This document shows positions 6,219 to 59,515 of a stretch of 64,000 nt of DNA, one piece after another. Each line of letters starts with the position of its first letter. Positions within the stretch are counted from its first letter, which is position 1. The DNA comes from a virus (lineage: Duplodnaviria > Caudoviricetes). The translations under genes and the position numbers were made by a program. The stretch spans positions 1 through 64,000 of the IMG/VR virus record IMGVR_UViG_3300035208_004206. One strand, 5' to 3'. The notes beneath the pieces were generated by a model. It saw only the letters and a list, made by a program, of their open reading frames with translations. It searched no databases and was not told the DNA's origin.

Positions 6219-6611
6219 TTGTGCACTGTAAGGAAGTTCGTTGACGAGTTCAATCGGCACGGAAGCGTGCTGTTGGACAACACGTTATCTGTTCCTAAGA
6301 TTGACACGTTCGAAGCCAATGCGGTCAAGCGCAATGGATCATGGGTGATTCCAGTGATGGTTGTGCGAGAAGGGGAAGCAATGTTTGTTGGGTCGATGCA
6401 CGATTGGCCCAAAGAAATTTCACTTGATCTGTGGACCAGGGTGATGCAAGCTGTTCATTATACGGTTCTTATGTTCAATCACGAAGACGGAAGAGAGTGT
6501 GCATTGGTGCGGATGCAAGTACCAGAGTCGAGGGCGTATGCTTTCGCTGTGGAGATATTCGATCGTAAGACTGGACCGGATGGTGTGAAGGGAGGGGAAC
6601 ATGCTTTTTGA
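6219..6611 (+). CDS. Hypothetical protein (probable TTG start)
   Basis: GAGG SD 8 nt upstream, after TAAATA at 6187. Confidence 0.55.
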   Translation: MCTVRKFVDEFNRHGSVLLDNTLSVPKIDTFEANAVKRNGSWVIPVMVVREGEAMFVGSMHDWPKEISLDLWTRVMQAVHYTVLMFNHEDGRECALVRMQVPESRAYAFAVEIFDRKTGPDGVKGGEHAF

Positions 6612-9600
6612 GAAGACCGCTTTTTTGGATGAAGCTGCGAACCCTCAGGAGTTCATCGACCGGACAGAAGAGGTCATCAGACTCATCGGCCTGCGCGGTC
6701 TTGTTGATCGCATCTGGAAAGATGAAGGAGATGAAGCTACCGCACTTGAGATGCTGTCCAATCTGAATGGATATGAAACAGAAGCCGACGATCTCACCAA
6801 TGATCTTGAGTGGGATGAATCTCGCCCTGATCTTGCTGCCACTCTTTGCAAAGGACCGAAGTTCAAAGCGTGGATCGGTCGCAGAGCTGGTCGCACTGAT
6901 CTGAATGAGAGTGAAGATATAAAGATTGGAAGATTTATTGCTCGAAAAGAGGTTGTTGACAGAATCGCACAAGAGGTTGGTATCCCAGCAAAAGGTGTTG
7001 TTTCAATTCTGAAAGTGAGGAATAGTGGATATTACTATGACATTAAGTGGATGACCGGATATCACGATGACATCATCGATAAAGTGTGTAATCTTTGGGA
7101 ACAAACCCCCGACTCAGAAAAGAGAGAGCGTAAGCAGGATCTGAATGAGAGTGGGAACGGAAACAAAGTGTTCGATTCATTTCATGATTGGGAAAACGCC
7201 GCAAGGAAAAATGGTCTCGAGGTCTATGCACAGGGTGCTGCTGACGGAAAATACTATGTGAAGGATAAAGATGGTGAAGTATGCGGAAGGTTTGACAAGA
7301 AGGCTGAAGATGGATGGATTCACACATCTGATCTGAACGAGGACGTCGACGAGACGAAGCCCTACTGTGTTGTGCGTACCGGTGGGTATATCAGTATGAA
7401 GAGTGGTATCGTTGCGACCTTTGACACCGCTGAGGAAGCAAAGGAATATGCAAGCCGGATGAACAAGGCGAGATCGCAGGGCGATCGGGAATACTACAAG
7501 ATTCACTACTCCGCGCAGAAGAACAACAAGGGTCTCAAGCTGACGACAGAGGGTCTTGATGAATGTCAGTCCTGTGTTGAGTCTTCTCTCTTCAAGATGG
7601 GTGCAGAAGAGTTGCTTGCCAAGATGACAGAGCTTGACAGCAATGCTGCTGGTAAAGCTGCTCGTGACTTTGGGGCAGGCGGAAGTCGTATCCAGTTGAT
7701 CAACAAGCTTGACGCCCTGTTGAAGTACGGAACACGGATCCTCGCAGAGTGGTTGAAGGATGAATCACCGATCGTGTATGCCGCACTTGGGGGGAAGGAG
7801 AAGCATGGAGAGAAGATCGAGGAAGCTTTTGGTCGGCCAATAAACTTGGATGAAATTGCAAAAGACTTTGGTATTTCATATCGTCAGGTATTTCATATTT
7901 TGAAAAAAAGACAAATAGGAAATACAATATCGAAACTTGCGCAAGAGTATAAGATGAATATTCGTGAAATGGAAGGTATAGTTAAGAAGCTTGAAGAATA
8001 TGGATTTGTTGATTCAACAAAAGATTGGGAGGAGAATATGAAAGAGAAGATGATCAACGAGGTTGGGTATGTAGAACCGGTCATGACTCCGCAGGCAATA
8101 GCCAATCGGGCAAAGCAACCTGTCAGCCCTTGGGTCGGTCGTCGTGCTGCTTGGGATGCATGGAAGAAGGACAGCGCTTGGGAGAAAAGAGATCCCGAAG
8201 CTATTAAAGCCGGTAAAGTACTTGCTCAGATCAGTGGTGACGACGTTGCTCTGACCATTGATTACACAGATGGTCCTGAAGCTCTTTCCAAAGTTGCTCG
8301 TCAGATCCACGCGTCTATGTCTAAGACCCAAGGTGCAGCATTCAATCGGATGATCAAGAAGGGAAACGGTTCTGGTCTGCTTGCTATCCTCAAGCGTGAA
8401 GCCCCAAAGTTCTATGCTGGTCTGCTTGCTGCTGATCATGAGACCAACGCTCGTGACGGCAAGTACGAGGGGTTTGATACTGGTGCTGACAACCCGCGCA
8501 ATCTCACACCCGATGAACAGTCGATGGCGAACAGTGAGACGAGAGTTGATGAGATAGATGAAAATAGAGAAGCGGAAGGTCCTTCTGCTGAGTTTCTTCA
8601 GTGGGAGCTTGACCAAATAGACACCTTCATGCGGAAGTCTGATGGTGACTACGATGATTATGACTGGGATGGAACCGAGCTTGTCGTGTTCAATGGCGGT
8701 GAAGTGATCGAACGGTACAATCGTCAGGACCTTGAGGAAGCTGGTGTCTTCACCAAGAACGAAGCTGTTGTGCCGTGTGGTGATGGTGCTGCGATAGTTG
8801 AATCAATATCAGAGTTCGCACGGAACAATGTCACGATGGCAACAGTGGAAACTCTTGTGGATTTCATCGAAAAAGAGGGCGCGCTTGAAGCTCTCGATGA
8901 CAGCTTCAACGGATATGGCGATAAAGATGCACTCATCAGACAGATGAAATTGATGAAGCGCACCGATCCGAACGGATACGTCGATGCAGTGTTTCGAACC
9001 GACGTTGTTCGTGCGGCTTTCAAGCGCGCAGAGGACAACGAAGCGGCCATCGAAAGCGAGACCGCGTGGGAGGAGAAGTCGGTCGGTGAGGAGATCACCG
9101 AAGCGACCATCCGTGATCGTGGCACACGTGACCGCATATATCTTGCGACCGGCACCAAGAATGACTTCCTCGCGGTCAAGCGGATGTGCGAGATGAAAGT
9201 GTCCAACCCCAAAAAGTATCGGAAGGTGTTGGGTGAAGCGACCGATTCTCCGACGACTCTTAGTCCTGGCCAATACTGGATCGGTGACCTCTGCTACGTG
9301 ATGCACGACGTGTGGAACGAGGTGGTCGATAAAATGTACGAGGGTGACACCGATCATGAAGGAGAGGTCATCACACTCAATGATGGCAGGGAGTTCCTGT
9401 ATTTTGGGACGGCACATGGAGATGGCGAGTACTTCGATAACGAAGGTAATGCATATGGTGTCGATGCAGGGATCATAGGCATCATCGCGTTGGAAGATAT
9501 AAAACAGGATGGAAAGAACGATCTGGCCAATGGTAGGGTCGAGATGTTCAGTTCACCGTTCAGTTGTGCAAAGGACGGCGGGGTGTTGATATTCGGTGGC

Positions 9601-9993
9601 ATTCAAATCGACACGGATCCTCAGGAGGATTCCGATGAAGATTACGAAAACGAATACCCTGATGATGACATTGACGAGGCGAAAGTCGATTCTGAGTTGC
9701 CACAGGCGGCAGGTGAGAGTGAACCTGATGATATTGAGTACACATGGCGCGAGTGGAAGCGGGAACTTAGTGGGATGATGGTATTCTCTCAGTCTGACCT
9801 GGATGACATATTTGGTGAAGATGCAGAATCATACGACACCTCGGAGTGGGTCGAGCGCGGGTACATCGAGCGGGTGGAAGGGTTCGATGACATGACGCCG
9901 TCCGAGCTCAGGCAACTGTGTGTTGACCCAGACTGCCTCGACATCATCGAATCCGACCCGGATGAGAGATACTTCAGGGTCATTCAACACTAA
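6601..9993 (+). CDS. 1130-aa acidic modular protein; putative head-packaged polyprotein
   Basis: GGAGG SD; unrelated modules separated by repeated DLNE/LDE/INE/ITE/IDE linkers; includes an HTH-like segment and an IGDLCYV..GTAHGDG..VDAG module. Confidence 0.85.
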   Translation: MLFEKTAFLDEAANPQEFIDRTEEVIRLIGLRGLVDRIWKDEGDEATALEMLSNLNGYETEADDLTNDLEWDESRPDLAATLCKGPKFKAWIGRRAGRTDLNESEDIKIGRFIARKEVVDRIAQEVGIPAKGVVSILKVRNSGYYYDIKWMTGYHDDIIDKVCNLWEQTPDSEKRERKQDLNESGNGNKVFDSFHDWENAARKNGLEVYAQGAADGKYYVKDKDGEVCGRFDKKAEDGWIHTSDLNEDVDETKPYCVVRTGGYISMKSGIVATFDTAEEAKEYASRMNKARSQGDREYYKIHYSAQKNNKGLKLTTEGLDECQSCVESSLFKMGAEELLAKMTELDSNAAGKAARDFGAGGSRIQLINKLDALLKYGTRILAEWLKDESPIVYAALGGKEKHGEKIEEAFGRPINLDEIAKDFGISYRQVFHILKKRQIGNTISKLAQEYKMNIREMEGIVKKLEEYGFVDSTKDWEENMKEKMINEVGYVEPVMTPQAIANRAKQPVSPWVGRRAAWDAWKKDSAWEKRDPEAIKAGKVLAQISGDDVALTIDYTDGPEALSKVARQIHASMSKTQGAAFNRMIKKGNGSGLLAILKREAPKFYAGLLAADHETNARDGKYEGFDTGADNPRNLTPDEQSMANSETRVDEIDENREAEGPSAEFLQWELDQIDTFMRKSDGDYDDYDWDGTELVVFNGGEVIERYNRQDLEEAGVFTKNEAVVPCGDGAAIVESISEFARNNVTMATVETLVDFIEKEGALEALDDSFNGYGDKDALIRQMKLMKRTDPNGYVDAVFRTDVVRAAFKRAEDNEAAIESETAWEEKSVGEEITEATIRDRGTRDRIYLATGTKNDFLAVKRMCEMKVSNPKKYRKVLGEATDSPTTLSPGQYWIGDLCYVMHDVWNEVVDKMYEGDTDHEGEVITLNDGREFLYFGTAHGDGEYFDNEGNAYGVDAGIIGIIALEDIKQDGKNDLANGRVEMFSSPFSCAKDGGVLIFGGIQIDTDPQEDSDEDYENEYPDDDIDEAKVDSELPQAAGESEPDDIEYTWREWKRELSGMMVFSQSDLDDIFGEDAESYDTSEWVERGYIERVEGFDDMTPSELRQLCVDPDCLDIIESDPDERYFRVIQH

Positions 9994-21669: not shown

Positions 21670-22269
21670 ATGAAGTTTGATCGGACCATCTTTGAAAAAT
21701 CTGAACGTGTGATATATGTCCCGTCTTCTGATATGCTCGCAGACCCTGACTTCGGTGATGTGCCAGTCAGTGTCAACCCAACACTTGGTGATATAATGAA
21801 GATGTCTGCCAATCATCATGATGTCAGAGCAGTGTATATAACAGATGGAACCCTTTATGCTTGGACCGGACCGATTGAACATCACGATCTACCAATACAA
21901 GCTGAAGCACATGTGGGTCTTGTAAGGAGATTTAATCTTTACTTTGCACAGTCTCCGACATTCAATGATTTGTTTGATGTTGATGACGCAGGAAGAGAAA
22001 TTAAGAAAGCAACTCTTAGCGGTTTGGTGGTTGCAGAATCTTCATCGAATCATCACATAACAAATATATCTGATATGAAAACATTATACCAGAAGACAAA
22101 GACTCATCCTGTTTTCAAAGACGTGTCATGGTTCAAAGCATACTCAGATAACACCGGAAATAATCAAGGGTATGTTATCAGAACAGAAGACGGTGCAATC
22201 GCAAACACCCCAAACAGATGGCATGAGGAAGAGACAGACGAATTCTTGAAATTCACGGGGAACAGATAA
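21670..22269 (+). CDS. Dispersed member of the MxFxRxLxE paralogue family
   Basis: MKFDRTIFE leader; VSVNPT..DGTLYAW..EHHD..FNLY core as in the 52.6-57 kb array. Confidence 0.7.
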   Translation: MKFDRTIFEKSERVIYVPSSDMLADPDFGDVPVSVNPTLGDIMKMSANHHDVRAVYITDGTLYAWTGPIEHHDLPIQAEAHVGLVRRFNLYFAQSPTFNDLFDVDDAGREIKKATLSGLVVAESSSNHHITNISDMKTLYQKTKTHPVFKDVSWFKAYSDNTGNNQGYVIRTEDGAIANTPNRWHEEETDEFLKFTGNR

Positions 22270-46892: not shown

Positions 46893-46951
46893 ATTCATTT
46901 TATCCACAAAATCTAACAGTAAATACTCACAACGAGTTGTGAGGTGTTCTC

Positions 46952-47541
46952 ATGCGGTTTGACCGGATGTTTTTCGAAGCAAGGATCGACCCAGAAGAAA
47001 AGAAAAGATTGCTGGATGAGATTGTGTTCCTTGATAAAACACAGACCCTTCTGTTTTCGAAAATATCTGCAACAAAGCAAAACGTGAATTCAAAGGTTTG
47101 ATCTATCCAGACGGCAAGGTTGCAGTGTGGAATAAATCTGGGTGGTCAGGCGAGTTACATTGGGAGCATGTTGCTGTTTCTGAACGTATTCATGCTGCAG
47201 GGGTCGAGAAAGTAAAACCGCTTGCTGCGATCTATATCAATGTATCAGATTATGAAGATCCTTTTGTGACATTTTCATCTTCAAACAATTCTTATTTTTA
47301 TCCGAAGTATCTTAGACACCATGGCGATAACAATGTATCAAGAAAACAAAGTGATATTATGTTCAACGCTCTCCCAACTGTTGATAGGATCATATATGAC
47401 AATAGAGAAGTTTCACGTAATGAGTGGGAAGATGAAAATGTAAGTAGCAATCAATTAGATATACCATTTGAAAATAACAAGACAAAGATATACAGTCGAA
47501 CACCGTCTGGACCACAAACAGCAAATATGGAGCAAGGGTGA
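46952..47541 (+). pseudogene. Frameshifted member of the MxFxRxLxE paralogue family
   Basis: MRFDRMFFE leader in one frame (stop at 47099-47101); family core KGLIYPDGKVAVW..EH in the -1 frame, open from 47038. Confidence 0.7.
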
Positions 47542-48053
47542 AGTTCTCTCGACAACTAACAGAAGCAGTCTTAGTCGGGAAAGCTGGCTGGGGTAGAAAC
47601 AAAGATATTCCGATCTATCAGATGGATCTTGCAGAAGTAAAAGAACGGTCGGAACGTATTCCAACTGGTGATTATATCAAGGGTATTGCTTTACACAACG
47701 GAGAATTTCTTGTGTTTGGTGAGATGAACCTTGAGCATGAAACAGTGGCTGGCACAATAGAATATGATGGGAAGTTTGCTTTCTATCTGTTTAGAAGGAT
47801 TGCGTGCGGAGCAGAATGGATCATATCAGTTGACACCCCATCAAATAGATTAGCAGAATGGAATGTTGTTGACCCCTTGCCAGATGACCACTGGTCTTTT
47901 GGTTTTGAGCGAATGATAATAAAGACTTTCCCTTTTGCAGAGTGGATTGAATTCAATAGTATGCTTGTAAGGGTGAATCCGAAACGCCGTCTTGAACATG
48001 GTGATTTTACAGCATCAACAAAGGATTATGAAAAACTCATGGGGCAAGGATGA
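47538..48053 (+). CDS. MxFxRxLxE paralogue family member
   Basis: MKFSRQLTE; KGIALHNG..EH..FYLF..FPFAEWI. Confidence 0.8.
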   Translation: MKFSRQLTEAVLVGKAGWGRNKDIPIYQMDLAEVKERSERIPTGDYIKGIALHNGEFLVFGEMNLEHETVAGTIEYDGKFAFYLFRRIACGAEWIISVDTPSNRLAEWNVVDPLPDDHWSFGFERMIIKTFPFAEWIEFNSMLVRVNPKRRLEHGDFTASTKDYEKLMGQG

Positions 48054-48082
48054 TATTCGAAAGTTCAGAACAGATCAAATAA
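48050..48082 (+). pseudogene. 10-codon relic of a family member (MIFESSEQIK)
   Basis: ATGA-coupled; first 14 nt identical to the start of gene 56386. Confidence 0.5.
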
Positions 48083-48134
48083 TCTAACCTTCTGTTTCCT
48101 CTAAATATCTGCAGTAGTATTCTAGGAGAATATC

Positions 48135-50258
48135 GTGGCAGACCCAACCCAATCGAAACAACTTGCTGAGTTCATAAAACAACACTATGCGAAATCCTAT
48201 AATCGCAAGGCATTAGAAAAGGTTCTCGACAAGTCACTCGAGAAGAAGCAGACACAGTTTGAGAAAGCTTTTGCTGCTGAGCTTGAGAAAGCATCGAAGC
48301 GATCCGACTCCTTCAATTCCTTTGCTCAGGCAATGGAACAGTCTAATCGAAAGGTCATTGAGCAGATCAGACTGACCAGAGGGTCTCTTGCAGCAAGAGC
48401 AGAGAAAGAGCGTCAACGTGGTCTCATCATGTTCAAGAAAGATCTGGTCGACCTGCAGTCAAAGACCAAAGGGATGGATCCTACAAAGGCAGCAAAGGAA
48501 GTACGGGATTACATTGCCAAGCAGACTGCAGCAACAGAAGCATTCGAAGAGCATCTTGCTGAGAAGCGGCGGGATATAGAGAAAGTCGGTGAGTATCTGG
48601 CAAAACCTGCGACCGCGCTGAAGGATGCTGCCGCAGCAATGATCCGTCGTGGAGAAGAGAAAGGTTCCGTGATCATGCGGAGACTGGGTGGAGCACTCAG
48701 CTTTGCAATGGACCCAACAAAGTTCGCCAAGGAGTGGGCAGGAAAGAAAGGGAAGCAGTTCGCCTTTGCCGCTCTCATGAAGACCTCGAGCAAGTTCAGA
48801 GCAAGGATCGCAAAGAAAGAACTTGAACGGAAACTGCGTGACCCTGCCTTCATGCTCAAGGTGACGTCACAAGTTATACGCGAGGTTCGTGACAACAAGG
48901 AAAAGCAAACAGACGCGATGGCATCGTTGACCAAAGCAACCCTTGCTGCATTTGATGGGTTGAAGAATGCACAGAAAGCATCGTCTGATATGCAAGAAGT
49001 TGATGCTACAATGAGAGAGGAACACTCTGAGACCTTGAAAGCTCTGCTTGAGATGTTGTCTGAAGAAAACAAAGACGAGAAAAAGAAAGACGCTGAACTT
49101 GAAAAGGAAGAGAGTGGTTTTGTCGCGTCGATGGAAAACACGATCAATGACAAGATGAGCTTCTTCACCAACCACCTCCTTGCCAGTCTTGCAGAAAAGC
49201 TTGGGATCAACGCACTTAAAGGAATAGTTCGCGGATTGCCAAAGCTCATTTCAGGGGCAGTGACGACAGCATTGATGAACCCTGCTGTTCTTGTTGCTCT
49301 TGCTGCTGCAACACTTGTCTATCTTAGAAACGCAGGGGAAGAAGAAAGGAAGAAGAAAATAGAAGAAGATCGTGTTGCTGCCGAAGATAGGGCTAAAGCA
49401 CAAGCAGATGAAATAGTTGGAAAGGGTTCTGCAGATGAGGCAGTACAAATTCTAAAAGATGAAGCAGATAAGAAAACGGCTGAAACAAAAAGTTCAACAG
49501 ATGCTACAAGAAAAGAATTTGAAAACACTGTTAAAGATGATGGTGTAGCAAAATCTTTTATGACCGGTCTTGGAAAATTTGTTGTCGGTATAATTGAAGA
49601 ATCTCAATTAAATGCTGCCGGTGAAGATATGAGAACGCTGGTTGAAAATACTGCCGCGTTGAAAGCCGCATTGCTTGATACTGTTAATTACCTCAATAAA
49701 AATAAAGAAGAACAAAATAATATTAAAAAATTTGGAATGCAGGGGTTTGGTGCAAAATCTTATCGTGCGCCAAGAGATGAAGATATTAAAAAATTCCATG
49801 GCGATCTTTCACACGAAGATATTAAAAATATAAAAGATGAATATATAGACATAGTAAAAATTCTTTCTCATAATGCTGAGATTCTTAATCTATTGGAAAC
49901 TGCAACAAAAGATAAAAAAAATATTGACATAAACAAAGTAATGAAAGAAATAGCAGAAGCAAACATCAAACACATAAAAGAAACAACAAAACCTTTTACA
50001 ACAGGTGAAATATCTAATATTTTGGTTGATCAGATTAAAGAACAACTTTTACCACAGGTTGAACCAACGAAAGAATATACTGTCCCAACGGTTTCCGCCC
50101 CCGCCTTATCATACGTTTCCCCCGGTGTTAAAGAGATACTTATTAAAAAAGAAACTGAAGCTCTTAATGTAGATAAACTTAGCAACAAACTAAACATACT
50201 AAACAAAACCATGAAAGCTCTTCCGAAAAAAACTCAGCAAATCGGAGTACAAAAATAA
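48135..50258 (+). CDS. Tape-measure/baseplate-hub-like coiled-coil protein 1
   Basis: Ala/Lys/Glu-rich helical sequence with a central hydrophobic segment; late promoter at 48102. Confidence 0.6.
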   Translation: MADPTQSKQLAEFIKQHYAKSYNRKALEKVLDKSLEKKQTQFEKAFAAELEKASKRSDSFNSFAQAMEQSNRKVIEQIRLTRGSLAARAEKERQRGLIMFKKDLVDLQSKTKGMDPTKAAKEVRDYIAKQTAATEAFEEHLAEKRRDIEKVGEYLAKPATALKDAAAAMIRRGEEKGSVIMRRLGGALSFAMDPTKFAKEWAGKKGKQFAFAALMKTSSKFRARIAKKELERKLRDPAFMLKVTSQVIREVRDNKEKQTDAMASLTKATLAAFDGLKNAQKASSDMQEVDATMREEHSETLKALLEMLSEENKDEKKKDAELEKEESGFVASMENTINDKMSFFTNHLLASLAEKLGINALKGIVRGLPKLISGAVTTALMNPAVLVALAAATLVYLRNAGEEERKKKIEEDRVAAEDRAKAQADEIVGKGSADEAVQILKDEADKKTAETKSSTDATRKEFENTVKDDGVAKSFMTGLGKFVVGIIEESQLNAAGEDMRTLVENTAALKAALLDTVNYLNKNKEEQNNIKKFGMQGFGAKSYRAPRDEDIKKFHGDLSHEDIKNIKDEYIDIVKILSHNAEILNLLETATKDKKNIDINKVMKEIAEANIKHIKETTKPFTTGEISNILVDQIKEQLLPQVEPTKEYTVPTVSAPALSYVSPGVKEILIKKETEALNVDKLSNKLNILNKTMKALPKKTQQIGVQK

Positions 50259-52262
50259 ATGACTCCTCAAATAGATTACGATAAGCTGAAGAGGGAACTG
50301 CTTCAAGCGGTCTCTGATTCAGTTGCTGCTTTTGCCCAGGCAGTATCGAAGACCGGTGGGAAGGATGATGCTTTTGAAAAGCTTGCGTTGTTCCTTGGAG
50401 AGAAAGCACAAGCTGGTCTGCTAGAAGCCTTTGCAGGTAAGAACAGTATTGACGAGTTAGTCAAAGCTCAGCGATCGATCGGTGCAAGGATTCTCACAAC
50501 AGTCAAAGAAAACTCTGGTGAGATCGAGAAGGTCTTTGGCCCAGAGATGGCGAAGACTGCAACGAAGGTTGCTGAACAGTGGGCGATAGAACGGAAGGCA
50601 ACATCTAAAGCATCTGTTGCCGGTTTGGGGAAAGTCACCTCAGCTGTTGCCAAACAGGTTGAAGCTGGCAGACGTATGGTTGACGGTGCAAACGCCAGAG
50701 CAACCGAACGAAGTGAAGAGGTCGCTGAGAGTATGATGGCTCTCATGGGATCTGGTCGAGACCGTGCTGCCAAGGAAAATTCCTCTGCTGTCAAAGCCCT
50801 GACAGATATTTCAGAACGGTTCGACAAAGAACGAGCAGATCAAACAGTGAAGTCTGTTGAGCTGGTGAAGAAATCGATCGAAGCGGTTGGAGAGGGTGGG
50901 AAGGTCGGGGAAGAGATGGCAGCAACAGCAAGAAGTGAATCGCTTGCTGCTGCAGAAGATCTCATGCCAGAGACCGTTGATCCTTCATTGTTGCCAAAAG
51001 AAATAGAACATCTTGTTAATGATAAACCATCCAAAGCAACTAAGGTCACCATCACTTCAATAACGGCCAATGATCCCGCTGAACAATATGCCGCCGATCA
51101 ATGGTTGGCAGAACAGAATCAAGAGAGTCAAGAACAGCATGGTCTGTCAGAAGATATTATTGATGAGTTAGATGAACGAGGTAGTGTCAGGAAGAAAAAG
51201 AGAACTGCTGCAACCCGAAAGAGTAAGGGTTGGTTATCGAAGGTCCTCATTGGTCTTGGTACTGGAATTGCGGGTGGTGGGCTGTTTGCTCTCAGTAAAT
51301 TCATGGAAGAAGAACCAGAAGGATTCACAGAAGACCAGGTTGCTCGACTGATAGAAGCTGGTTATACAAAAGAACAACTTACTCAAGTCAGTAAAACTGG
51401 TCTTGCACAGATGCCAGTCAATGCTCCGAGAGGTGATAAAGGTCTTTCCTCCGAAGAAATGAATAAACGCAGGCTGATGGATCTTCGAGAAGCTGCCAAG
51501 AAGTACGGGGTTATCATTAAAACGAAAATAGAAAATATGCCAGTTTATATAAACCGTGAACTGGCAGAATCACCAGAGGGTGAAAAGTATATCAGATCTC
51601 TTGAGGGAGAAATAATAACTGAAACTATTTTTAGACATAATGAGGATTCTATACACTGGCACGGTCTTAAAGCCGATATACGAATATGGAAAAAGTCTGC
51701 GGAAGAGATCGTTGAGAAAATGAGAAAATTAAAAGAGGCTGATATTGGAGCAATATATGAATACAATAAAAACAATTTTAATGCAGGTAAAGCTATTTCA
51801 GATAGAGGGTTTGTTACTGGGTTGAGTGATCAAGAGTCAAAAGATCTTACTGTTTATAACCACGTGACCGCCCTTAGAAAAGCTGGTTTTACTGAAGGAG
51901 GGAAAGGGAATATTCAAGCGACCGGCGAGGTAGCACACATCGATATAGACGCAACCAAAACTTTTACATTTAAGGTAAAAGAGTGGGGGCGAAAACTCAT
52001 AGCTAAACTGCGGAATAAAACCAAGGACGTTTCAGCTTCACCAACCGTAGAGTCTTCTCCAATGCGGAAAAAATCAGAAGGAATGGATGCTCAACTACCA
52101 CAAGGAAAGGAACAGAAAACACAACCATCTGTTCCAGGAAAACAAGCCAACGCGACAATAAATACAAGCACGAGCAGTGTTGTTAGCCCGCACCAAAAGG
52201 TGTTTGATGATGCAGCAGATACACTGGATGAAGTAAACAAATATTTGCAGAGGTTAACATGA
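50259..52262 (+). CDS. Tape-measure/baseplate-hub-like protein 2 with an M15-peptidase-like domain
   Basis: Helical N-terminus, TM-like LIGLGTGIAGGGLFALS, R..SIHWHGLKAD (H-x6-D) and distal HID. Confidence 0.6.
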   Translation: MTPQIDYDKLKRELLQAVSDSVAAFAQAVSKTGGKDDAFEKLALFLGEKAQAGLLEAFAGKNSIDELVKAQRSIGARILTTVKENSGEIEKVFGPEMAKTATKVAEQWAIERKATSKASVAGLGKVTSAVAKQVEAGRRMVDGANARATERSEEVAESMMALMGSGRDRAAKENSSAVKALTDISERFDKERADQTVKSVELVKKSIEAVGEGGKVGEEMAATARSESLAAAEDLMPETVDPSLLPKEIEHLVNDKPSKATKVTITSITANDPAEQYAADQWLAEQNQESQEQHGLSEDIIDELDERGSVRKKKRTAATRKSKGWLSKVLIGLGTGIAGGGLFALSKFMEEEPEGFTEDQVARLIEAGYTKEQLTQVSKTGLAQMPVNAPRGDKGLSSEEMNKRRLMDLREAAKKYGVIIKTKIENMPVYINRELAESPEGEKYIRSLEGEIITETIFRHNEDSIHWHGLKADIRIWKKSAEEIVEKMRKLKEADIGAIYEYNKNNFNAGKAISDRGFVTGLSDQESKDLTVYNHVTALRKAGFTEGGKGNIQATGEVAHIDIDATKTFTFKVKEWGRKLIAKLRNKTKDVSASPTVESSPMRKKSEGMDAQLPQGKEQKTQPSVPGKQANATINTSTSSVVSPHQKVFDDAADTLDEVNKYLQRLT

Positions 52263-52603
52263 TCTCACAAATGATCGAACAACACCTGACGTTTCAAGCG
52301 ATCTTGATGGCGATCATCGTTAATCTTGCCGTTGAGTTCATCAAAGACTGCGTTGACCACTACGCCAAGGGAAAGAAGATACCTCTGAGGAAGCAGGGTC
52401 TCTTTGCCTCAACGTTTGTGATGGGGGCAGGGTTAGCATGGGTCGGGTGTTATGTGAAGCTCCTGGATTGTTCTAGTGACCCGATCTTTGTGGTCGGTGC
52501 ATGGTATGGTGTTCTTGCTGTTCTGATGTATGCGATCGGTCTGAAAGAGATCTTGACCGCGGTGAAGGGGATCATCAAGAAATGGCTTGGAGGAGAGAAA
52601 TGA
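52259..52603 (+). CDS. Three-TM membrane protein, holin candidate
   Basis: Three hydrophobic segments, basic C-terminus. Confidence 0.55.
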   Translation: MISQMIEQHLTFQAILMAIIVNLAVEFIKDCVDHYAKGKKIPLRKQGLFASTFVMGAGLAWVGCYVKLLDCSSDPIFVVGAWYGVLAVLMYAIGLKEILTAVKGIIKKWLGGEK

Positions 52604-53127
52604 AATTCACTAGGAATCTTTCAGAAAAGATAGGGGGAATCGTGTTGAACGATTTTGAAAAAGAGTTTGACATTTATCTTAACCCAACAGAAAAAGAGTT
52701 TGTAAAATTGTTTAATATAGTATCACAAGTAAAAGGAACCCTTACAACGAAAGGAGATCTTATTGTATGGATACATAAAGAATATCCTAAGGGGCTTGAA
52801 CATGGTAATGTTAGACGTGACCCATTGTTTGCAAAGTATATGAAAGATGCTCTTTACAATTTCTATCTGTTTCGCGACGGGGCAAGACCATATAAAGGTG
52901 GGTATGGTAGAATTGTAGAGTGGAGCCTGTCTGATGAACAGTGGAAAGGGTTGTCTAAGTTTTACAAACCCGAAGTGTTGAAAGGCTTGAAAGCTCGTAT
53001 CCCTGATCTTAAGTGGGCAGTGTTTGGTGACTATATTGTTAATGTAGAAACAGATAAAAAGTACGCGAACTATAACATATACAATGCAGCAAGAATGATT
53101 TCACATCTGGCACGGAAAAAGAAATGA
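52600..53127 (+). CDS. MxFxRxLxE paralogue, array member 1
   Basis: MKFTRNLSE; IYLNPT, KG..GDLIVW, EH, NFY, IPDLKW. Confidence 0.85.
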   Translation: MKFTRNLSEKIGGIVLNDFEKEFDIYLNPTEKEFVKLFNIVSQVKGTLTTKGDLIVWIHKEYPKGLEHGNVRRDPLFAKYMKDALYNFYLFRDGARPYKGGYGRIVEWSLSDEQWKGLSKFYKPEVLKGLKARIPDLKWAVFGDYIVNVETDKKYANYNIYNAARMISHLARKKK

Positions 53128-53618
53128 CAACTTTTCTCCGAGAAAACATATCCCCAATCATAGAAGTCACCAATAAACTTGAAGCTGCAAACATCTTTGC
53201 TCAAGATAAGGTTGGAGCAAAAGGTCTTGTCTATCCAGATGGTAAAGTATTCTTGTGGCCAATGTACCCAGTGGGTGGAACAATAGAACATGAGGATGCT
53301 GCATATCAAATACAATATTCGAAAATGCACAAGAACAAACCCATCTTTTCTTTCTACTGGTGGAAGAGATACGCAGGGATAACAGAAAATGTTATCACAG
53401 AATCGGTTTCAAACACGACAGGATTTTACCCAAAGTTCTTGGCAAAGCATGATGATGGAAAGTACACAACAAGGAAAGCGACACCACTGTTAGAGTGGAT
53501 CCCATGTGATTGGATTTGTTTTGTTGATGCTTTCATAGATTGCAAAACAAAAAAGGTTACAATGACCAACACCCCGATGGGTGATCTTCGTTGGATAACT
53601 AAAAAAATACAGGGGTAG
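53124..53618 (+). CDS. Paralogue, array member 2
   Basis: MTTFLRE; KGLVYPDGKVFLW, EHED, SFY, IPCDW. Confidence 0.85.
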   Translation: MTTFLRENISPIIEVTNKLEAANIFAQDKVGAKGLVYPDGKVFLWPMYPVGGTIEHEDAAYQIQYSKMHKNKPIFSFYWWKRYAGITENVITESVSNTTGFYPKFLAKHDDGKYTTRKATPLLEWIPCDWICFVDAFIDCKTKKVTMTNTPMGDLRWITKKIQG

Positions 53619-53622
53619 AAAC

Positions 53623-54171
53623 ATGACAACGTTCAATCGGTTGATTCAAGAGAAGTTGCTCACAGACTACAAAGGAGAGGAGTTCTATATTGGGTCCTCT
53701 GGTGGTGGTCTTGAGAAACTAATGAATGCTTCACCTTCTGGTGTGCTCAAGGGTTCGGTCCTTGTGACAGGCGATCTGATCGTCTGGATTGAGATGGGGC
53801 ACTCTGAAGCGTACAAGCTTGTGCCAGAGATGAAACCTTTTGCAACCAAAGCACTCTACAACTTCTACTTGAATAAAGACTTTGACCCGATGAGCACAGG
53901 TAAAACGATCGCTACCAATGTTGTGGAGTCGAGTGCTTCTAACGACAAGAGCTTCTCATCCGAACAGAAGAAACTGTTTCCGAAAGCCAGTGGCAAGTAC
54001 AGCGCAAGCGTGGTCGATACCATTCAGCTCAAGATCCCATTTGCAGAATGGATCCTGTTCGATGACGCGATCGTTGATGCGCAGTCTGGCGAGATCGTCA
54101 AGAAGTTCAGCAATGTGAAGGGTGGGATGTGGTTGAAGGCGGTGTCAAACTTCTTCAGAGAAAAGAAATGA
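53623..54171 (+). CDS. Paralogue, array member 3
   Basis: MTTFNRLIQE; KG..GDLIVW, HSE, NFY, IPFAEW. Confidence 0.85.
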   Translation: MTTFNRLIQEKLLTDYKGEEFYIGSSGGGLEKLMNASPSGVLKGSVLVTGDLIVWIEMGHSEAYKLVPEMKPFATKALYNFYLNKDFDPMSTGKTIATNVVESSASNDKSFSSEQKKLFPKASGKYSASVVDTIQLKIPFAEWILFDDAIVDAQSGEIVKKFSNVKGGMWLKAVSNFFREKK

Positions 54172-54719
54172 TCTTCACCCGCAATATCCACGAATCAAAA
54201 ATTTTATATGGCAATACTGATTTCCCAGTTTATAAAAACCCAACCAAAGAAGAGATGCAAGCAGTTTTCAATGCTACAGCCGGTGAAGCAAAAGGACTCA
54301 TGCTTCGTAATGGTGGTGATGTCTATGTGTGGCCAAGCTTATATAACACTTCAGAACATTCTGAAGTGTTTAACGAGTTGAATATTAAAGAACAAGACGT
54401 CTGGATAACATTCTATATGTGGATGAATCCTTCTGCTTTCTTTAGACTGTATCGTGGCGATAGTATTGATGTGTCCGCTGACTTTGATGTTTTTATTAAA
54501 ACCAGCGTGTCATCAAATGTAAGATTTGGTTTGTTCTCTCGCGTTGTTGACAAGTGGTCTACACAGCTTGGTGCAAAGCTGAGGAATATTCCAGGGGCAC
54601 ATTGGATTACTCTTCCCGCTAGGTTGTATGATCTTGATACGCTTCAGCAAGTGAAAGTCGGTAACACATACGAGGCAATGAAGACGGTACTGTTGGGAGA
54701 GTACAAAGATGATATTTGA
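54168..54719 (+). CDS. Paralogue, array member 4
   Basis: MIFTRNIHE; VYKNPT, KGL..GDVYVW, EHSE, TFY, IPGAHW. Confidence 0.85.
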   Translation: MIFTRNIHESKILYGNTDFPVYKNPTKEEMQAVFNATAGEAKGLMLRNGGDVYVWPSLYNTSEHSEVFNELNIKEQDVWITFYMWMNPSAFFRLYRGDSIDVSADFDVFIKTSVSSNVRFGLFSRVVDKWSTQLGAKLRNIPGAHWITLPARLYDLDTLQQVKVGNTYEAMKTVLLGEYKDDI

Positions 54720-55275
54720 GAGAACCCTCAGCGAGTCCACTGTTGTTGGGAAGATGCCGAACGGCGGGGATATATGGAAAGTTAATACTGACGAAGCTAA
54801 AGCACTACTTGTTACAGAAACCAGAATCAAGGGGATGGTACTCAGACCCGGTGAAGGGTGGGGAATGTCTGGTCTGCCTAGGATATATGTATGGGGTGTT
54901 GGGGAACATACCGCCGGTATGGCTGAACTTATTAAAAAGAAAGCCGCAGGATTTAATATCGAAGATGTTTCCTTCACCTTTTATGCGTATGATAAAAAGG
55001 CTGGAGGTAAAAACATTATAGATCTTGCCACCCCATCAAACAATCTCAACTGGTGGTTGGGTAAAGACTTTGAAGGAATGCACGATCTGGCGACTGAATG
55101 GTATCGTGCAGAGGTTGTAGAAGAAGTGAAGAACGTTTTCCCTTGGGCAGAGTGGTTGTTCTTCAGCAATGCGATCGTCGATCTTACAAACGGGAACGTT
55201 GCGAAAGAACAGAATGCTTCGTCTGAGTGGATCGCAAAAGGTTTAATCAAAGAACTGAAAGGGTTGAGAAAATGA
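54709..55275 (+). CDS. Paralogue, array member 5
   Basis: MIFERTLSE; KGM, IYVW, EH, TFY, FPWAEW. Confidence 0.85.
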   Translation: MIFERTLSESTVVGKMPNGGDIWKVNTDEAKALLVTETRIKGMVLRPGEGWGMSGLPRIYVWGVGEHTAGMAELIKKKAAGFNIEDVSFTFYAYDKKAGGKNIIDLATPSNNLNWWLGKDFEGMHDLATEWYRAEVVEEVKNVFPWAEWLFFSNAIVDLTNGNVAKEQNASSEWIAKGLIKELKGLRK

Positions 55276-55826
55276 TATTCAACAGAGTTCTTAAAGAATC
55301 AATCGATGTTGCATATGATAATGCGAAAGGTTTGGCTGTTAAAAAGATGACAGCAAGAGAAATACAAAAGCGGGTGAAGACTCTTAATCCTATGAAAGGT
55401 CTTGCTCTGACAAACGGAAATCTTTTCGTTTGGGTTAATGGAAGAGGAGAACATCTAGAACATCGTGATGCCTTTCATCTTTTGCAAAATGCAAAAATTC
55501 CAGGGGTCAAACCAGAGAATCTTGCTTTTACCTTCTACGCAGACAAAGAAGATAGTTATGGAGAAACGTATATTGATCTTGCCACCCCATCGAATGAAGC
55601 ATGGTGGTGGAAAGGACACGGTGAAGGTTTTTCAAACTTGCTAAACAATGTTAAGTATACACCAGAAACAGCAGAGATGTTGAAGAAAAGATTCCCGCTG
55701 GTAAAGTGGTTTGTCTTTGATAATGCCATTGTTGATGCAACAAACGGAAGATACCTTAATGATAATTGGGCAAGTTCGCTTGTTACCATGAAGCGGTTGA
55801 TGGGTGAGCTGAGGGGGCTGAGATGA
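55272..55826 (+). CDS. Paralogue, array member 6
   Basis: MIFNRVLKE; KGL..GNLFVW, EHRD, TFY, FPLVKW. Confidence 0.85.
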   Translation: MIFNRVLKESIDVAYDNAKGLAVKKMTAREIQKRVKTLNPMKGLALTNGNLFVWVNGRGEHLEHRDAFHLLQNAKIPGVKPENLAFTFYADKEDSYGETYIDLATPSNEAWWWKGHGEGFSNLLNNVKYTPETAEMLKKRFPLVKWFVFDNAIVDATNGRYLNDNWASSLVTMKRLMGELRGLR

Positions 55827-56389
55827 TATTTGAACGTCGTCTACCTGAAATACACTCTGATCCAGATGAAGATAATAGGGTAGAAGAAATAATAACATTT
55901 ATCAATCCGTCTGTCAATGAAGTAAAAGAAACTCTTGATGAAGGTGAAGGCGAAGGTAAAGGCATGATGATGAAAAATGGGGATGTAATTATTTGGCCAA
56001 ACGCAATAGGAATTAATGCCGAACACCTTGGGGCCGTGAGTGAATTGGGGTATGACGACGACGATGTTCAGTTCACTTTTTACTTCTTTGATAACGGTGA
56101 AACATACAAACATACAAACTGGGAACACTTTGATCCTTCGCTGAATCGTCATCTCCCAAATACCGGGATGATCATCAAGTCTAGTATATCCTCTGCTCCA
56201 GGGTGGGGAACTTTTATGAAAGCGTCTGATAAGTGGAACCCGGTCAGAATGAAAAAACTTATCGATCTCTTGCCAATGACACAATGGATTATATTACCAA
56301 AATGGGTGATCAATGCAAACACCATGGAAAAAGTGATGAGAACAGAAACATTAGGACCGTTGGGTATTATCTTAGGAGCAACGGAATGA
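55823..56389 (+). CDS. Paralogue, array member 7
   Basis: MIFERRLPE; FINPS, KGM..GDVIIW, EH, TFY, LPMTQW. Confidence 0.85.
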   Translation: MIFERRLPEIHSDPDEDNRVEEIITFINPSVNEVKETLDEGEGEGKGMMMKNGDVIIWPNAIGINAEHLGAVSELGYDDDDVQFTFYFFDNGETYKHTNWEHFDPSLNRHLPNTGMIIKSSISSAPGWGTFMKASDKWNPVRMKKLIDLLPMTQWIILPKWVINANTMEKVMRTETLGPLGIILGATE

Positions 56390-56967
56390 TATTCGAAAGA
56401 AGGCTTTCAGAAGAACTGTTTTTTACTACACCGGAAACAGATAACGATATGGAAAAGAACGTCTATAAAAATCCAACAGCTTCTGAATTTGAACAACTGT
56501 TTCGAGAGGCAGAAGGTTTTAATGACCAAACAACCAGAATCAAGTTGGCGCTTTCAACAGACGGAAATCTCTATGCTTGGTCAGAAGGTGAACACACAGA
56601 TATGATAAACGATGCTGATATTTTATATAGCAAAATCAAAATGACTATGTACCTGTATCAAAACGTTTCTGATCCAATTCACAAATGGGATGATGACGGA
56701 GAGTATAGAGATCTTCCGGTTATCGAAGGACTGGTTCTCAACACTAGTGTTTCTTCAACCCCATCATGGGGTGCTTTTCCCAACGCAACAAATAGAATAA
56801 CACCAACCCTTGCAAAGATATTAAAGAAGCGTATTCCAGCTCTGAAGTGGATCCTTGGGAATGAAGTTCTTTTTGACACAGAGGGTAATAGACTACCACC
56901 AAAGAAATCAGATTGGTCGGCTATTCTGAAGATCATGGCACACGAAGGTCTTCAGAAAAAGCAATAA
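56386..56967 (+). CDS. Paralogue, array member 8
   Basis: MIFERRLSE; VYKNPT, DGNLYAW, EHTD, IPALKW. Confidence 0.85.
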   Translation: MIFERRLSEELFFTTPETDNDMEKNVYKNPTASEFEQLFREAEGFNDQTTRIKLALSTDGNLYAWSEGEHTDMINDADILYSKIKMTMYLYQNVSDPIHKWDDDGEYRDLPVIEGLVLNTSVSSTPSWGAFPNATNRITPTLAKILKKRIPALKWILGNEVLFDTEGNRLPPKKSDWSAILKIMAHEGLQKKQ

Positions 56968-57016
56968 TTCTCCTCCTGTAAATAACAATAGAACAACGTT
57001 TATTAGAGGTTGAACA

Positions 57017-57475
57017 ATGTCAGATCCAGTGCTTCCTAAAATCGAATTGCCAGTTATTCCTTCAATACCCGTAAAGACACTCGAAGACCAAGTGAAGGTG
57101 CTTGCAGAGACTCTTGCCCTTCAAGCTGAAGAAGCGAGAAAGAAAGGCAGACCACGTCTCATCAGAGCGTGGGAATGGTTCATGGATAACAATGCTTGGA
57201 TCGCGTGGGTCCTTGCGCTTCTCATCACCCTGGTCGCATGTGGTGCTGTTTATAAGTGGCGAGATGCAGAAGCAAGGGTGACTGCAGCAACGACAGCAGG
57301 GACGAACTCTGCTCTCGAGAGAGCGATCGGTGCGAATGCTGAGAAGGCGAAGGTCGTTGCGAAAGAAGGAAAGACCACCGCGAAGGGAAACCTTGTGTAT
57401 TCAAACTTTGAAGATGCTGATGCGGCATTCAAAGAAGCAATGTCTGCCGCGAAAGACCAAAAGAAGAGCCAGTAA
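57017..57475 (+). CDS. Single-pass membrane protein (i-spanin-like candidate)
   Basis: TM WIAWVLALLITLVACGAVY followed by an Ala-rich helical region; TAAATA at 56979. Confidence 0.55.
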   Translation: MSDPVLPKIELPVIPSIPVKTLEDQVKVLAETLALQAEEARKKGRPRLIRAWEWFMDNNAWIAWVLALLITLVACGAVYKWRDAEARVTAATTAGTNSALERAIGANAEKAKVVAKEGKTTAKGNLVYSNFEDADAAFKEAMSAAKDQKKSQ

Positions 57476-57514
57476 ATAGTTAAGAATACTTGGATTGTGT
57501 AAGGAGAGAATTCG

Positions 57515-58216
57515 ATGAAAGCCTTGCTTGTTGGGTATGGTGAAATCGGTAAATCTGTGCAAACAGTGTTCGGTTCCTTTCATGATCTTCGAAATGTTAT
57601 TGATCCCAAGTATAACACCCAAGTAGAAAACGTTGAGTACGATATTCTTCTGGTTGCTTTTGGATATAGTGAAAACTTCGAAGAGGTTGTTCGACAATAC
57701 CAGATAACCTTTAATATCAAACACACTATTATTTTCAGTACAGTTCCAATCGGAACATGTCGCAGACTTAATGCTTGTCACTGCCCAGTTGAGGGTAAAC
57801 ACCCAGACTTGGCAGAGAGTATTAAAATCACTTCGAAGTGGTTGGGCGGTTCAGATGAAAAGTGTTTTGAATTTGTTTCTTCTGCTGGGTTTGATGTTAA
57901 AATAACCGAACCAGAACACACAGAGTTCTTGAAGTTGCGCAGTACAACTGTGTATGGTGTGAACATTGAATTCGCGCGGTACTCGAAGGAGTGTTGCGAC
58001 AAGCTCGGGATGGACTATGATCTGGTAAAAGAATGGGATACGTGGGTCAACAAACTCTATAGTGATATGAATATGGGATGGGCAACTCGTTATATTCTGG
58101 ATGCTCCCATGGGACCGAAGGGTGGACATTGTGTCACACCAAATGCCAAAATACTTGACAAGATTTTTCCAAATGATCTTGTTAAAATTGTTGCAGAGGA
58201 AAAGAAACTTACATGA
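57515..58216 (+). CDS. Short UDP-glucose/GDP-mannose dehydrogenase-family protein
   Basis: VGYGEIG Rossmann motif, STVP.GT, E..KL...T...NI.F, GGHC. Confidence 0.8.
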   Translation: MKALLVGYGEIGKSVQTVFGSFHDLRNVIDPKYNTQVENVEYDILLVAFGYSENFEEVVRQYQITFNIKHTIIFSTVPIGTCRRLNACHCPVEGKHPDLAESIKITSKWLGGSDEKCFEFVSSAGFDVKITEPEHTEFLKLRSTTVYGVNIEFARYSKECCDKLGMDYDLVKEWDTWVNKLYSDMNMGWATRYILDAPMGPKGGHCVTPNAKILDKIFPNDLVKIVAEEKKLT

Positions 58217-58818
58217 AAAAAAGAGAAAAAGTAGTTCGTCAAATTGTAAGGGTGAACGGGCGATCTCTCATTCGTAGAATAGTGACACAGGTTGGTCGAT
58301 CACAGGTTGAACGTCTATTAAAAGACAAGAAGGGGGAAAAAAAACAAAAAGATATTATACCTGATCCTATTCATCACGATACTTTTGTCTACATAGAAAT
58401 ACTAAATGGTGAACTCTCAAAAATTGTTTCTCCTGAAGAGTATTCAACACTTCCTGAACTGTTTGAACATTATTCTCAGAGGGAAGAGGGGGAAGGAATA
58501 CTAATCTTCCGTAATTGGAATGAAAAAGCATATTCTGAAAAGATCCAGAAGTTCATTGACTATCTTCTAAGATTCAAGGAATTCTGTCAAGAGTATTCTG
58601 TTGATTATTGTAAAGGGGTAATTCTTTCGGGCGAAACTCAAACCATCATAGGGTATCAGGAATTCAATGTACTTCAGCAATTGAAAAGATTTGATGTTTT
58701 ATATATTGATAAAGAAAACTGTTCATTCTATCTTTCTAATAACATCAAAGACTTCGGTGATTTCACAAGGATGATATCAGAACACGGTAATTTGTTTGTG
58801 GTTAATAATGAACAATAA
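58213..58818 (+). CDS. Hypothetical protein in glycan cluster
   Basis: ATGA overlap; basic N-terminus. Confidence 0.65.
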   Translation: MKKREKVVRQIVRVNGRSLIRRIVTQVGRSQVERLLKDKKGEKKQKDIIPDPIHHDTFVYIEILNGELSKIVSPEEYSTLPELFEHYSQREEGEGILIFRNWNEKAYSEKIQKFIDYLLRFKEFCQEYSVDYCKGVILSGETQTIIGYQEFNVLQQLKRFDVLYIDKENCSFYLSNNIKDFGDFTRMISEHGNLFVVNNEQ

Positions 58819-59515
58819 CCCTTTTAGATTCTTTGATGCGATCTATGTAATCAACATGGATTTCTGTTTAGACAGATGGATGAAATTTCTTCAGCTTGCA
58901 AAAAAATACGACATACCAAATCCAATAAGGTTCCCCGCTTTTCGCCACGAGGTTGGGAGCTTTGGTTGTGCACACTCACATCGTCTAATCTTGAAAGAGG
59001 CTAGGCGAAGAAAGCTTTCGAACGTCTTGATATTTGAAGATGACGTAGATTTCATATACTCTCCAGATTTTACTTTGACATGTTTATCTGGTGCGATCAA
59101 ACGGTTGGGACGGGCCGAGTGGGATCTGTTCTACTTGGGGATTAACCCGAAGAACTCCAGACAGAAATTTTTTCCCGACCTGTTCGAAAAAACGCCTGGA
59201 ACCCTCTTTGTACCAAGGGATGAGTTCTACGGAAGGTTTGCTTACGCGGTCAATAGTCAGTCGTTTAACGTATACGATAACATCACTAACGAAATAGAAA
59301 GGTTTTCACCCGCCGATCGTGGTGATATAGTTTTGATGAACTCTAAAAAGATGAAGCACATGATATGGCCGTGTTTGACAGTTGTAAGTGATGCGGCAAG
59401 CTTTACCGGGTTTCAAAATGAAAAGTTAAAAAGTGGACTCAATAAAAAAAGCAGGGAAAAGATTTTGTTAAAGTATAGGAGTAATGGCTTGCAATATACA
59501 GAAAGACTAAAATGA
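58808..59515 (+). CDS. Glycosyltransferase family 25-like
   Basis: IYVIN...DRW, GC..SH..I, VLIFEDD, WDL.YLG, AY.V. Confidence 0.85.
   Translation: MNNNPFRFFDAIYVINMDFCLDRWMKFLQLAKKYDIPNPIRFPAFRHEVGSFGCAHSHRLILKEARRRKLSNVLIFEDDVDFIYSPDFTLTCLSGAIKRLGRAEWDLFYLGINPKNSRQKFFPDLFEKTPGTLFVPRDEFYGRFAYAVNSQSFNVYDNITNEIERFSPADRGDIVLMNSKKMKHMIWPCLTVVSDAASFTGFQNEKLKSGLNKKSREKILLKYRSNGLQYTERLK

Follow-up and report, generated by a model that had tools for sequence, protein, structure and literature searches.

The subject of this analysis is a family of paralogous genes, eight of which form a tandem array at positions 52600–56967 of the window, i.e. of the 64,000-nucleotide (nt) stretch corresponding to the first 64 kb of the 72.7-kb IMG/VR virus contig IMGVR_UViG_3300035208_004206. 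The products may be packaged cargo, to which we assign a probability of about one half: they would be capsid-targeted, protease-processed internal effectors, delivered into the host together with the phage DNA. The analogy with the internal proteins of phage T4, put forward in the preliminary description of this sequence, finds indirect support in a disordered, conserved leader ending in (L/I/F)xE and in a late-like promoter context. Further indirect support comes from the fusion of the same domain to Alt-like and polyvalent ART domains, and from the presence of a family leader on unrelated proteins of another contig, indicated below as G001.

Eleven paralogues and their N-terminal leader

The array genes, numbered from 1 to 8, and the three family members dispersed elsewhere in the window are reported below; lengths are in amino acids (aa), and pI indicates the isoelectric point. 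The orthologues mentioned are those of a related phage, described in a later section.

52600..53127, plus strand: array member 1, 175 aa, leader MKFTRNLSE, pI 9.6
53124..53618, plus strand: array member 2, 164 aa; its leader is shortened (MTTFLRE) and its NPT motif is lost
53623..54171, plus strand: array member 3, 182 aa; orthologue 97% identical over the available part
54168..54719, plus strand: array member 4, 183 aa, the modelled member; orthologue 69% identical
54709..55275, plus strand: array member 5, 188 aa, with a 17-mer at 55021–55037
55272..55826, plus strand: array member 6, 184 aa, with the 17-mer at 55575–55591
55823..56389, plus strand: array member 7, 188 aa, pI 4.8; an extra member lies just upstream of its orthologue
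56386..56967, plus strand: array member 8, 193 aa, final gene of the operon; next TAAATA at 56979
21670..22269, plus strand: dispersed member, 199 aa, leader MKFDRTIFE
46952..47541, plus strand: dispersed member in two frames, owing to a difference of 1 nt in the length of the A-run 47036–47039; TAAATA at 46920
47538..48053, plus strand: dispersed member, 171 aa, GTG start, leader MKFSRQLTE

In agreement with the preliminary description, the eight array genes lie on the same strand, encode products of 164–193 aa and make up one diverged family. They are mostly ATGA-coupled: the overlap is found at five of the seven internal junctions and at the junction with the upstream gene. A hidden Markov model (HMM) of the eight retrieved exactly three more members in the window (E-values 3e-12, 2e-08 and 6e-05; the next open reading frame, or ORF, scores 0.25), which confirms the count of 11. 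E-values range from 1e-47 to 6e-05 over all members, and a search of the whole 72.7-kb contig also gives 11 matches. The array products can be aligned over their full length, with a pairwise identity of about 22–27%, and the pI of the family members spans 4.8–9.6. Ten columns of the eight-sequence alignment are invariant: M1, F3, E9, K45, G52, W57, Y89, S111, P135 and W139. Some of the motifs originally attributed to the family as a whole, namely KG...G....W, FY and P...W, fall in these columns; roughly half of the members show NP(T/S)xxE clearly. When the alignment is extended to 48 solo sequences, a His is invariant and a Trp nearly so. At position 54621, within array member 4, the window reads A; the Logan contigs of both likely source runs have a G there.

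Ten of the eleven members start with the pattern MxFxRx(L/I/F)xE. Across the eight array members this leader is 55% identical, against 22% for the body of the protein, and three of the ten invariant columns fall within residues 1–9. Leader codons differ synonymously among members: selection therefore acts on the peptide. AlphaFold assigns the N-terminus a pLDDT below 50 in both models produced, at residues 1–14 in one and 1–21 in the other. In its strict form the leader pattern occurs eight times in the 72.7-kb contig, always at the start of family genes, and is absent from the control.

The (L/I/F)xE found at positions 7–9 fits the rule by which gp21, the T4 prohead protease, cuts after Glu. 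The leader of T4 ipII and ipIII is MKTYQEFIAE, as verified in NC_000866, and the N-terminus of T4 Alt, a propeptide, is MELITE; the capsid-targeting sequence (CTS) and its processing in T4 have been described (PMC9026906, PMC3012670). T4-like starts are found in distant homologues of the family (MKTFQQFIRE, MKSFKQYLSE, MTFKEYIKE), and another clade features MKRLIKKSE.

This last clade is represented in G001, an IMG/VR contig of 100,563 bases (loci L019 and L024–L026), which contains 13 domain matches in its first 14 kb and one more at 60.5 kb; since it is judged 24% complete, the phage of origin should be roughly 400 kb in size. Family genes of G001 are headed by MKRLIKK(S/A)E. Two more ORFs, at 32659 and 66471, start with the corresponding MKRL(I/V)KKAE, but their bodies are unrelated, scoring only 2.5–4 bits against the family HMM. 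In the window, one protein outside the family carries a leader, matching the family pattern only loosely:

6601..9993, plus strand: acidic protein of 1130 aa (pI 4.6), leader MLFEKTAFLDE; family HMM E-value 6.1, hence a non-member

DLNE motifs are present at residues 100–104, 180–184 and 244–248 of this protein, and its sole match is to a PHROG of unknown function, over residues 886–1019. Its sequence makes it a candidate for a second cargo, tagged by a leader and cut by a protease. The leaders on unrelated proteins in G001, along with the looser match in the window, suggest a portable signal rather than a part of the fold.

A hydrophobic-x-Glu motif is also found within the multi-copy homologues described in the next section, where 103 of the 136 internal units are preceded by it (52.7 +/- 5.3 would be expected), at a variable distance from the core, as might be seen in a polyprotein cut into units.

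Fold, distribution and domain architectures

The 48-sequence alignment led to a confident AlphaFold model (pLDDT 84.1, pTM 0.82, with all five models at 83–84): a single alpha/beta domain, preceded by 14 disordered residues, in agreement with an earlier model of another member. No fold could be recognized when the array was originally described, and this still holds: the family has no match in Pfam or PHROG and, confident as the model is, none in PDB. Foldseek gave nothing below an E-value of 0.03, when run against PDB for both models and against BFVD for the first one. Exhaustive alignment by VIA-align to 48,161 PDB representatives gave a best Z of 3.6–4.0, where unmatched models usually reach 7–8; for the confident model no PDB neighbour exceeds 3.9. 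Cofilin/ADF-H, phosphohistidine phosphatase and DHHA1 tie as the top structures and were rejected as relatives, the likeness being that of a common alpha/beta arrangement and not of kinship. When the family profile was compared with PDB sequences, only chance matches were obtained, to RCC1-like hairpins of BLIP-II. As modelled, the fold is therefore without a recognisable solved relative in the structures searched (PDB and BFVD). In the ESM Atlas, the whole protein is close only to unnamed clusters (0.82); for residues 15–100 the nearest clusters are HlyC and GNAT (0.87), a proximity that neither Pfam nor the fold searches support.

In the model, NP(T/S)xxE is located at the start of the first helix, where it looks like a helix-capping box (N-cap), and G(D/N) in a hairpin turn. 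Most of the conserved residues therefore appear to be structural. The conserved His had been proposed as possibly catalytic: catalysis is made doubtful by its being the only invariant polar residue and by the resemblance of NPTxxE to a helix cap. Structural-looking residues, along with the many-copy architectures reported below, make a binding module more plausible than an enzyme.

When the profile was run against 1.84 billion representative proteins, 137 matches were obtained, with an E-value of 1e-10 or lower for 38. The family amounts to at least 137 clusters at 50% identity, none of which is annotated. Sources include groundwater, landfill and other metagenomes, with phages of up to roughly 200–400 kb. 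The core consensus is h-h-K-N-P-(T/S)-x-x-E ... (K/R)-G-h-h ... G-(D/N)-h-Y-h-W ... H. Many homologues are large, with 2–11 copies of the N-terminal ~70–120 residues of the domain. The core domain is widespread among uncultured large phages, where it takes three forms: as solo genes, as repeat proteins of 2–11 copies and as a module of polyvalent proteins. Repeat proteins made solely of the family domain are P0009, P0015 and P0019; the following homologues carry recognizable partner domains:

P0018: ART-PolyVal and GNAT, four domain copies
P0073: exoenzyme-type ART, ART-PolyVal and 2H, three domain copies
P0046: Zeta toxin, two domain copies
P0005: GNAT
P0011, 846 aa: short leader ending in LYE, five domain copies, Alt-type ART

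By sequence comparison, repeat regions that had lacked an explanation in some polyvalent proteins consist of copies of one definable domain.

The genomic surroundings of homologues vary. In a T4-like contig of 190 kb, the gene for P0109, a solo protein, is flanked by tail-tube and baseplate genes. In L005, an ENA contig of 87,936 bases, the terminase gene is surrounded, within positions 1–16200, by at least 12 family genes with about 20 domain copies; genes for a subtilisin-like and an M16 peptidase and a sigma-factor-like gene follow the family genes in this contig.

Other comparisons were negative. The eight array members have no Pfam match and no meaningful match in PHROGs, nor was anything meaningful found in PHROGs for ten homologues. 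No named protein and no NCBI or UniRef protein is included among the homologues. A degenerate-pattern scan of 185,579 species genomes and two IMG/VR scans using single members gave no hits. A few matches were considered doubtful or unrelated and were not used: the bacterial giants P0024 and P0038, with Secretin_N repeats, and P0051, P0104 and P0119, with signal-peptide-like N-termini. The five match the profile only at positions ~35–121.

Genomic context and turnover of the array

The contig is estimated to be 32% complete, which suggests a genome of a little over 200 kb. A T4-type replication and repair set is present (gp43-like polymerase, gp41-like helicase, UvsX, gp46-like nuclease subunit), along with topoisomerase II subunits, RtcB, RNA ligase, NrdD and a neck protein, also of T4 type. 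The polymerase is at most 28% identical to those of deposited phages, and every match is to a T4-like phage. On this sequence evidence, the phage hosting the family is a member of a deep T4-superfamily lineage, and is not phiKZ-like. Its DNA was found again, almost identical, in groundwater and landfill metagenomes from separate studies; in runs X1–X3 the phage has a word depth of 8–17x.

The array is the tail of a block of eleven genes (48135–56967) with intergenic gaps of at most 4 nt. The elements located upstream of the family genes are:

48102..48107, plus strand: TAAATA, late-promoter-like motif, 33 nt upstream of the first operon gene
48135..50258, plus strand: first operon gene, 707 aa, Lys/Glu-rich, with a central hydrophobic segment; its N-terminus contains QLAE
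50259..52262, plus strand: second operon gene, 667 aa, with a hydrophobic segment
52259..52603, plus strand: third operon gene, 114 aa, with three hydrophobic segments, ATGA-coupled to array member 1

None of the three proteins has a PHROG, Pfam or NCBIfam match; NCBIfam was empty for all eight window proteins outside the array that were compared with it (operon neighbours, the 1130-aa protein and the products of genes near 21670). The three operon proteins may be further virion or envelope-crossing components. The 114-aa protein is holin-like in shape. A variant of the first gene is found in contigs of runs X1 and X2, where 49103 is joined to 49825 with 25 other letters in between, so that 721 nt of its Lys/Glu-rich middle are replaced.

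TAAATA is the core of the T4 late promoter TATAAATA. Of its 16 sites on the plus strand, nine (20219, 20755, 37105, 45951, 46920, 48102, 56979, 57473 and 61074) are located 29–42 nt upstream of a start codon. Motifs with this spacing precede the glucosaminidase gene, the member at 46952, the operon starting at 48135 and a glycosylation island. One also precedes the gene block holding the member at 21670, which lies directly upstream of the neck/head-closure gene (22269–23633), the motif itself being further upstream, at 20755. No replication gene features TAAATA at this spacing. Within 45800–57600, sigma-70 promoters and terminators are at background level. The motif has this spacing from start codons much more frequently than its position alone would predict. 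TAAATA is probably the late promoter core of this lineage, and late timing of the operon would follow from these sequence features.

The glucosaminidase gene (45991–46647) is followed by the members at 46952 and 47538, in an order that weakly echoes, as positional evidence, the e-ipIII-ipII order of T4. A GC-rich 290-nt gap with many inverted repeats (46657–46893) separates the glucosaminidase gene from the next TAAATA; it contains no tRNA and no Rfam family at gathering score, as does the window as a whole, when searched for Rfam families and tRNAs. The glycosylation island corresponds to an AT-richer block (57473–64000; GC 0.34–0.37, against about 0.45 elsewhere), which begins at a TAAATA and encodes GT25 and GT2 glycosyltransferases and two methyltransferases.

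A syntenic array is present in a related phage, which is represented by several short contigs from one sequencing project; contig L012 carries the orthologous array. Identity between orthologues is uneven within this one array (97%, 69%, 90%, 90%, 76% and 46%), and one additional member is found between the orthologues of members 6 and 7. The array thus undergoes turnover through whole-gene gain or loss, and segments of different ages have probably been exchanged within it. Over the orthologue pairs dN/dS ranges from 0.03 to 0.55, with dS from 0.29 to above 1, which indicates that the array genes are functional, constrained and under purifying selection.

Members 5 and 6 do share an exact 17-mer, at 55021 and 55575, where the chance expectation is 0; the recent duplication that it had been taken to indicate is not supported. 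The two proteins are 37% identical to each other, and since each has a 90% identical orthologue in the related phage, the duplication must be old. In that phage both paralogues show the same synonymous C-to-A change within the 17-mer, which suggests a short gene-conversion tract; the probability of a coincidental shared change is about 5–10%, by our own estimate. The sequence comparison suggests gene conversion as a better explanation of the 17-mer than recent duplication.

The member at 46952 carries its leader (MRFDRMFFE) in one frame and its body in another, and had been described as frameshifted. It is intact in two other assemblies, with one extra A after 47035 (runs X2 and X3); one of these comes from an independent landfill study, and the intact protein is on record as P0013. 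A programmed frameshift at 47036 was rejected, an A4/A5 length polymorphism or an assembly difference being preferred.

Packaged cargo as a proposed explanation, and its alternatives

If the proteins are packaged cargo, the array would be transcribed at a late stage, as the last part of a translationally coupled operon of 11 genes. The disordered leader, about nine residues long, would dock each product to the prohead core, like the capsid-targeting sequence of T4, and a gp21-type prohead protease would remove it after Glu9. The mature domains, of about 155–185 aa, would be kept in the head and ejected at infection, when their diversified surfaces (pI 4.8–9.6, about 22% identity) would allow different paralogues to bind different host targets. 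The members would thus be binding-type host-takeover or counter-defence factors, not enzymes, and other large phages would deliver the same domain as repeat proteins or as modules of polyvalent proteins. We infer late timing, packaging, cleavage, ejection and host targets alike. The spread of pI, the low identity and the gene turnover suggest paralogues with different partners; that these partners are distinct host-takeover or counter-defence targets, as is the case for T4 IPI*, would fit by analogy and is the least supported step, and an anti-defence role is to be regarded as conjectural.

Several known systems offer terms of comparison. The T4 internal proteins, like those described here, are small and non-conserved, with a leader of about 10 residues, ending in hydrophobic-x-Glu, which is conserved above the body; their paralogue-like genes lie side by side, and adjoin a lysis-type muramidase gene. 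Across T-even phages these proteins form a diverse set, in which the CTS alone is conserved (PMC3012670, PMC9026906). The T4 proteins are, however, unrelated to one another, encoded by three genes and basic, whereas the family described here features one fold and eleven genes. No homology was detected: IPII and IPIII give an hhalign probability of 0.1–0.6% against the family, and the family HMM finds no match in the T4 genome at E up to 10. T4 Alt is laid out like P0011: a short leader with hydrophobic-x-Glu at its end is followed by a long N-terminal region, and an ART of the Alt/exoenzyme type lies at the C-terminus. The N-terminal region of T4 Alt shows no trace of the family domain and, unlike Alt, the members in the window carry no enzymatic domain.

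Polyvalent proteins are predicted to be packaged and delivered early (Iyer et al. 2017, PMC5512222). The family domain likewise joins ART-PolyVal, ADPrib_exo_Tox, GNAT, Zeta-toxin and 2H domains and, as several LPDs do (PMC5512222), occurs solo near structural genes. Unlike in LPD proteins, the domain is often present in many tandem copies, and in the window it is solo only, with its own leader for each gene. No Pfam family, including the LPD families present in Pfam, was found over the repeats of the giants or in the solo proteins. Expanded paralogues of variable number, internal to the head, are also known in large phages, such as phiKZ (gp93–95, 162 and 163; PF12699) and SPN3US (families A and B). 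These paralogues are cut after Glu by a gp21-related protease and have identical leaders (PMC5694885). Since family B of SPN3US has 20 members (2–7 are reported for PF12699; PMC5694885), the size of the present array is not unprecedented. The eight array members do not match PF12699 at E up to 1, and no family match is found in the SPN3US genome. What is already known includes diverse internal proteins sharing a CTS, head paralogue families of giant phages and polyvalent-protein domains; the family with its fold, its breadth in large uncultured phages, the three modes of deployment and the lineage-specific leaders are new.

A number of results weigh against packaged cargo. The full TATAAATA is found only twice, at 37066 (minus strand) and 37103 (plus strand), with no enrichment, and TAAATA is taken as a late promoter from its position alone. 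Charge ranges from acidic to basic, whereas the T4 internal proteins are basic. Among 50,697 GenBank phages no match was found, either by blastn with the array or by tblastn with three family proteins and P0011; there being no cultured phage with the family, presence in the virion cannot be borrowed from a relative. Models for gp21 and gp23 find no match in the 32%-complete contig but, since they are silent in controls too, this negative carries no information on the head genes. The hydrophobic-x-Glu preceding the repeat units could be a structural element of the domain instead of a cleavage site. Finally, the arms-race diversification proposed for the array does not emerge from the orthologue pairs: dN/dS is below 1 in each of them and gives no gene-wide sign of positive selection.

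Packaged proteins might have a structural role only, as head-filling or prohead-core proteins of the T4 IPIII or phiKZ/SPN3US inner-body type, with no specific host target: they would then aid head assembly, DNA condensation or the mechanics of ejection. The evidence from the leader, the late context and the repeat proteins is identical for this explanation and for packaged effectors. Large head paralogue families are known in giant phages (SPN3US family B, PF12699; PMC5694885), T4 head assembly is slowed by the loss of IPIII (PMC9026906), and bulk material is suggested by the repeat proteins made of the domain alone (P0009, P0015, P0019). Yet a pI ranging from 4.8 to 9.6 and highly diverged surfaces are not expected of a DNA counter-ion or a scaffold; moreover, whole genes are gained or lost between close relatives, and the domain is embedded in polyvalent effector proteins. 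A purely structural role is considered quite unlikely. It is also unlikely, though not negligibly so, that the proteins are not packaged at all. They would then act in the cytoplasm as late or accessory products, for instance as chaperones of assembly, as factors governing superinfection or the timing of lysis, or in counter-defence only after their synthesis, with an N-terminus conserved for translation initiation, or as a degron or interaction peptide. Tight translational coupling could indeed constrain the 5' coding region for expression, and the operon also encodes membrane-type proteins. This is countered by the conservation of the peptide while leader codons vary synonymously, by the exact coincidence of the leader end with a protease-type motif, by the lineage-specific leader common to unrelated proteins in G001 and by the retention of the motif in internal repeat units, which have no start codon; the domain also occurs in fusion with Alt-like and polyvalent ARTs, and the prototypes of these ARTs are packaged (PMC5512222).

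Enzymatic activity through the invariant His, as a very diverged acyltransferase of the GNAT/HlyC type or a phosphohistidine-phosphatase-like hydrolase, with host or phage substrates, is judged very improbable. Besides the invariance of the His and near invariance of the Trp in 48 sequences, it is suggested by language-model features of residues 15–100, nearest to HlyC/GNAT clusters at 0.87, and by human phosphohistidine phosphatase as the top structural row (Z 3.6–3.9). The spacing G..W.....H may be reminiscent of the HlyC N-terminus. These signals, however, are within the range of chance (score below 0.9, only 119 shared features, Z below 4). Pfam gives no HlyC or GNAT match at E up to 1, and GNAT chains are absent from the results of three fold searches; the invariant polar residue is a single one, and up to 11 copies per polypeptide would be unusual for an enzyme.

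The packaged-effector reading may be carried further, in a form that is possible but doubtful: large uncultured phages would possess in common a cargo system not seen before, made of a highly evolvable alpha/beta binding fold and of portable, lineage-specific leaders. The fold would be deployed as solo genes, as polyproteins of up to about eleven units cut by a protease, or as a module of toxin-like polyvalent proteins; the leaders would bring this and other cargo into the capsid, and each paralogue would neutralise a different host defence or takeover target on entry. In that case the arrays would play in large phages the part of anti-CRISPR or Ocr-type loci, with products delivered pre-made. 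Should the packaged-effector reading itself hold, a large new class of phage proteins would be injected ahead of gene expression, at the stage where restriction, CRISPR and abortive-infection systems decide the outcome of infection. The leaders make up a testable set of candidate capsid-targeting sequences beyond the T-even phages, and might serve as tags for packing foreign proteins in capsids. The fold, modelled with confidence and lacking a solved neighbour, is a candidate new one and merits an experimental structure, and the naturally diversified paralogues are candidate inhibitors for the screening of defence systems.

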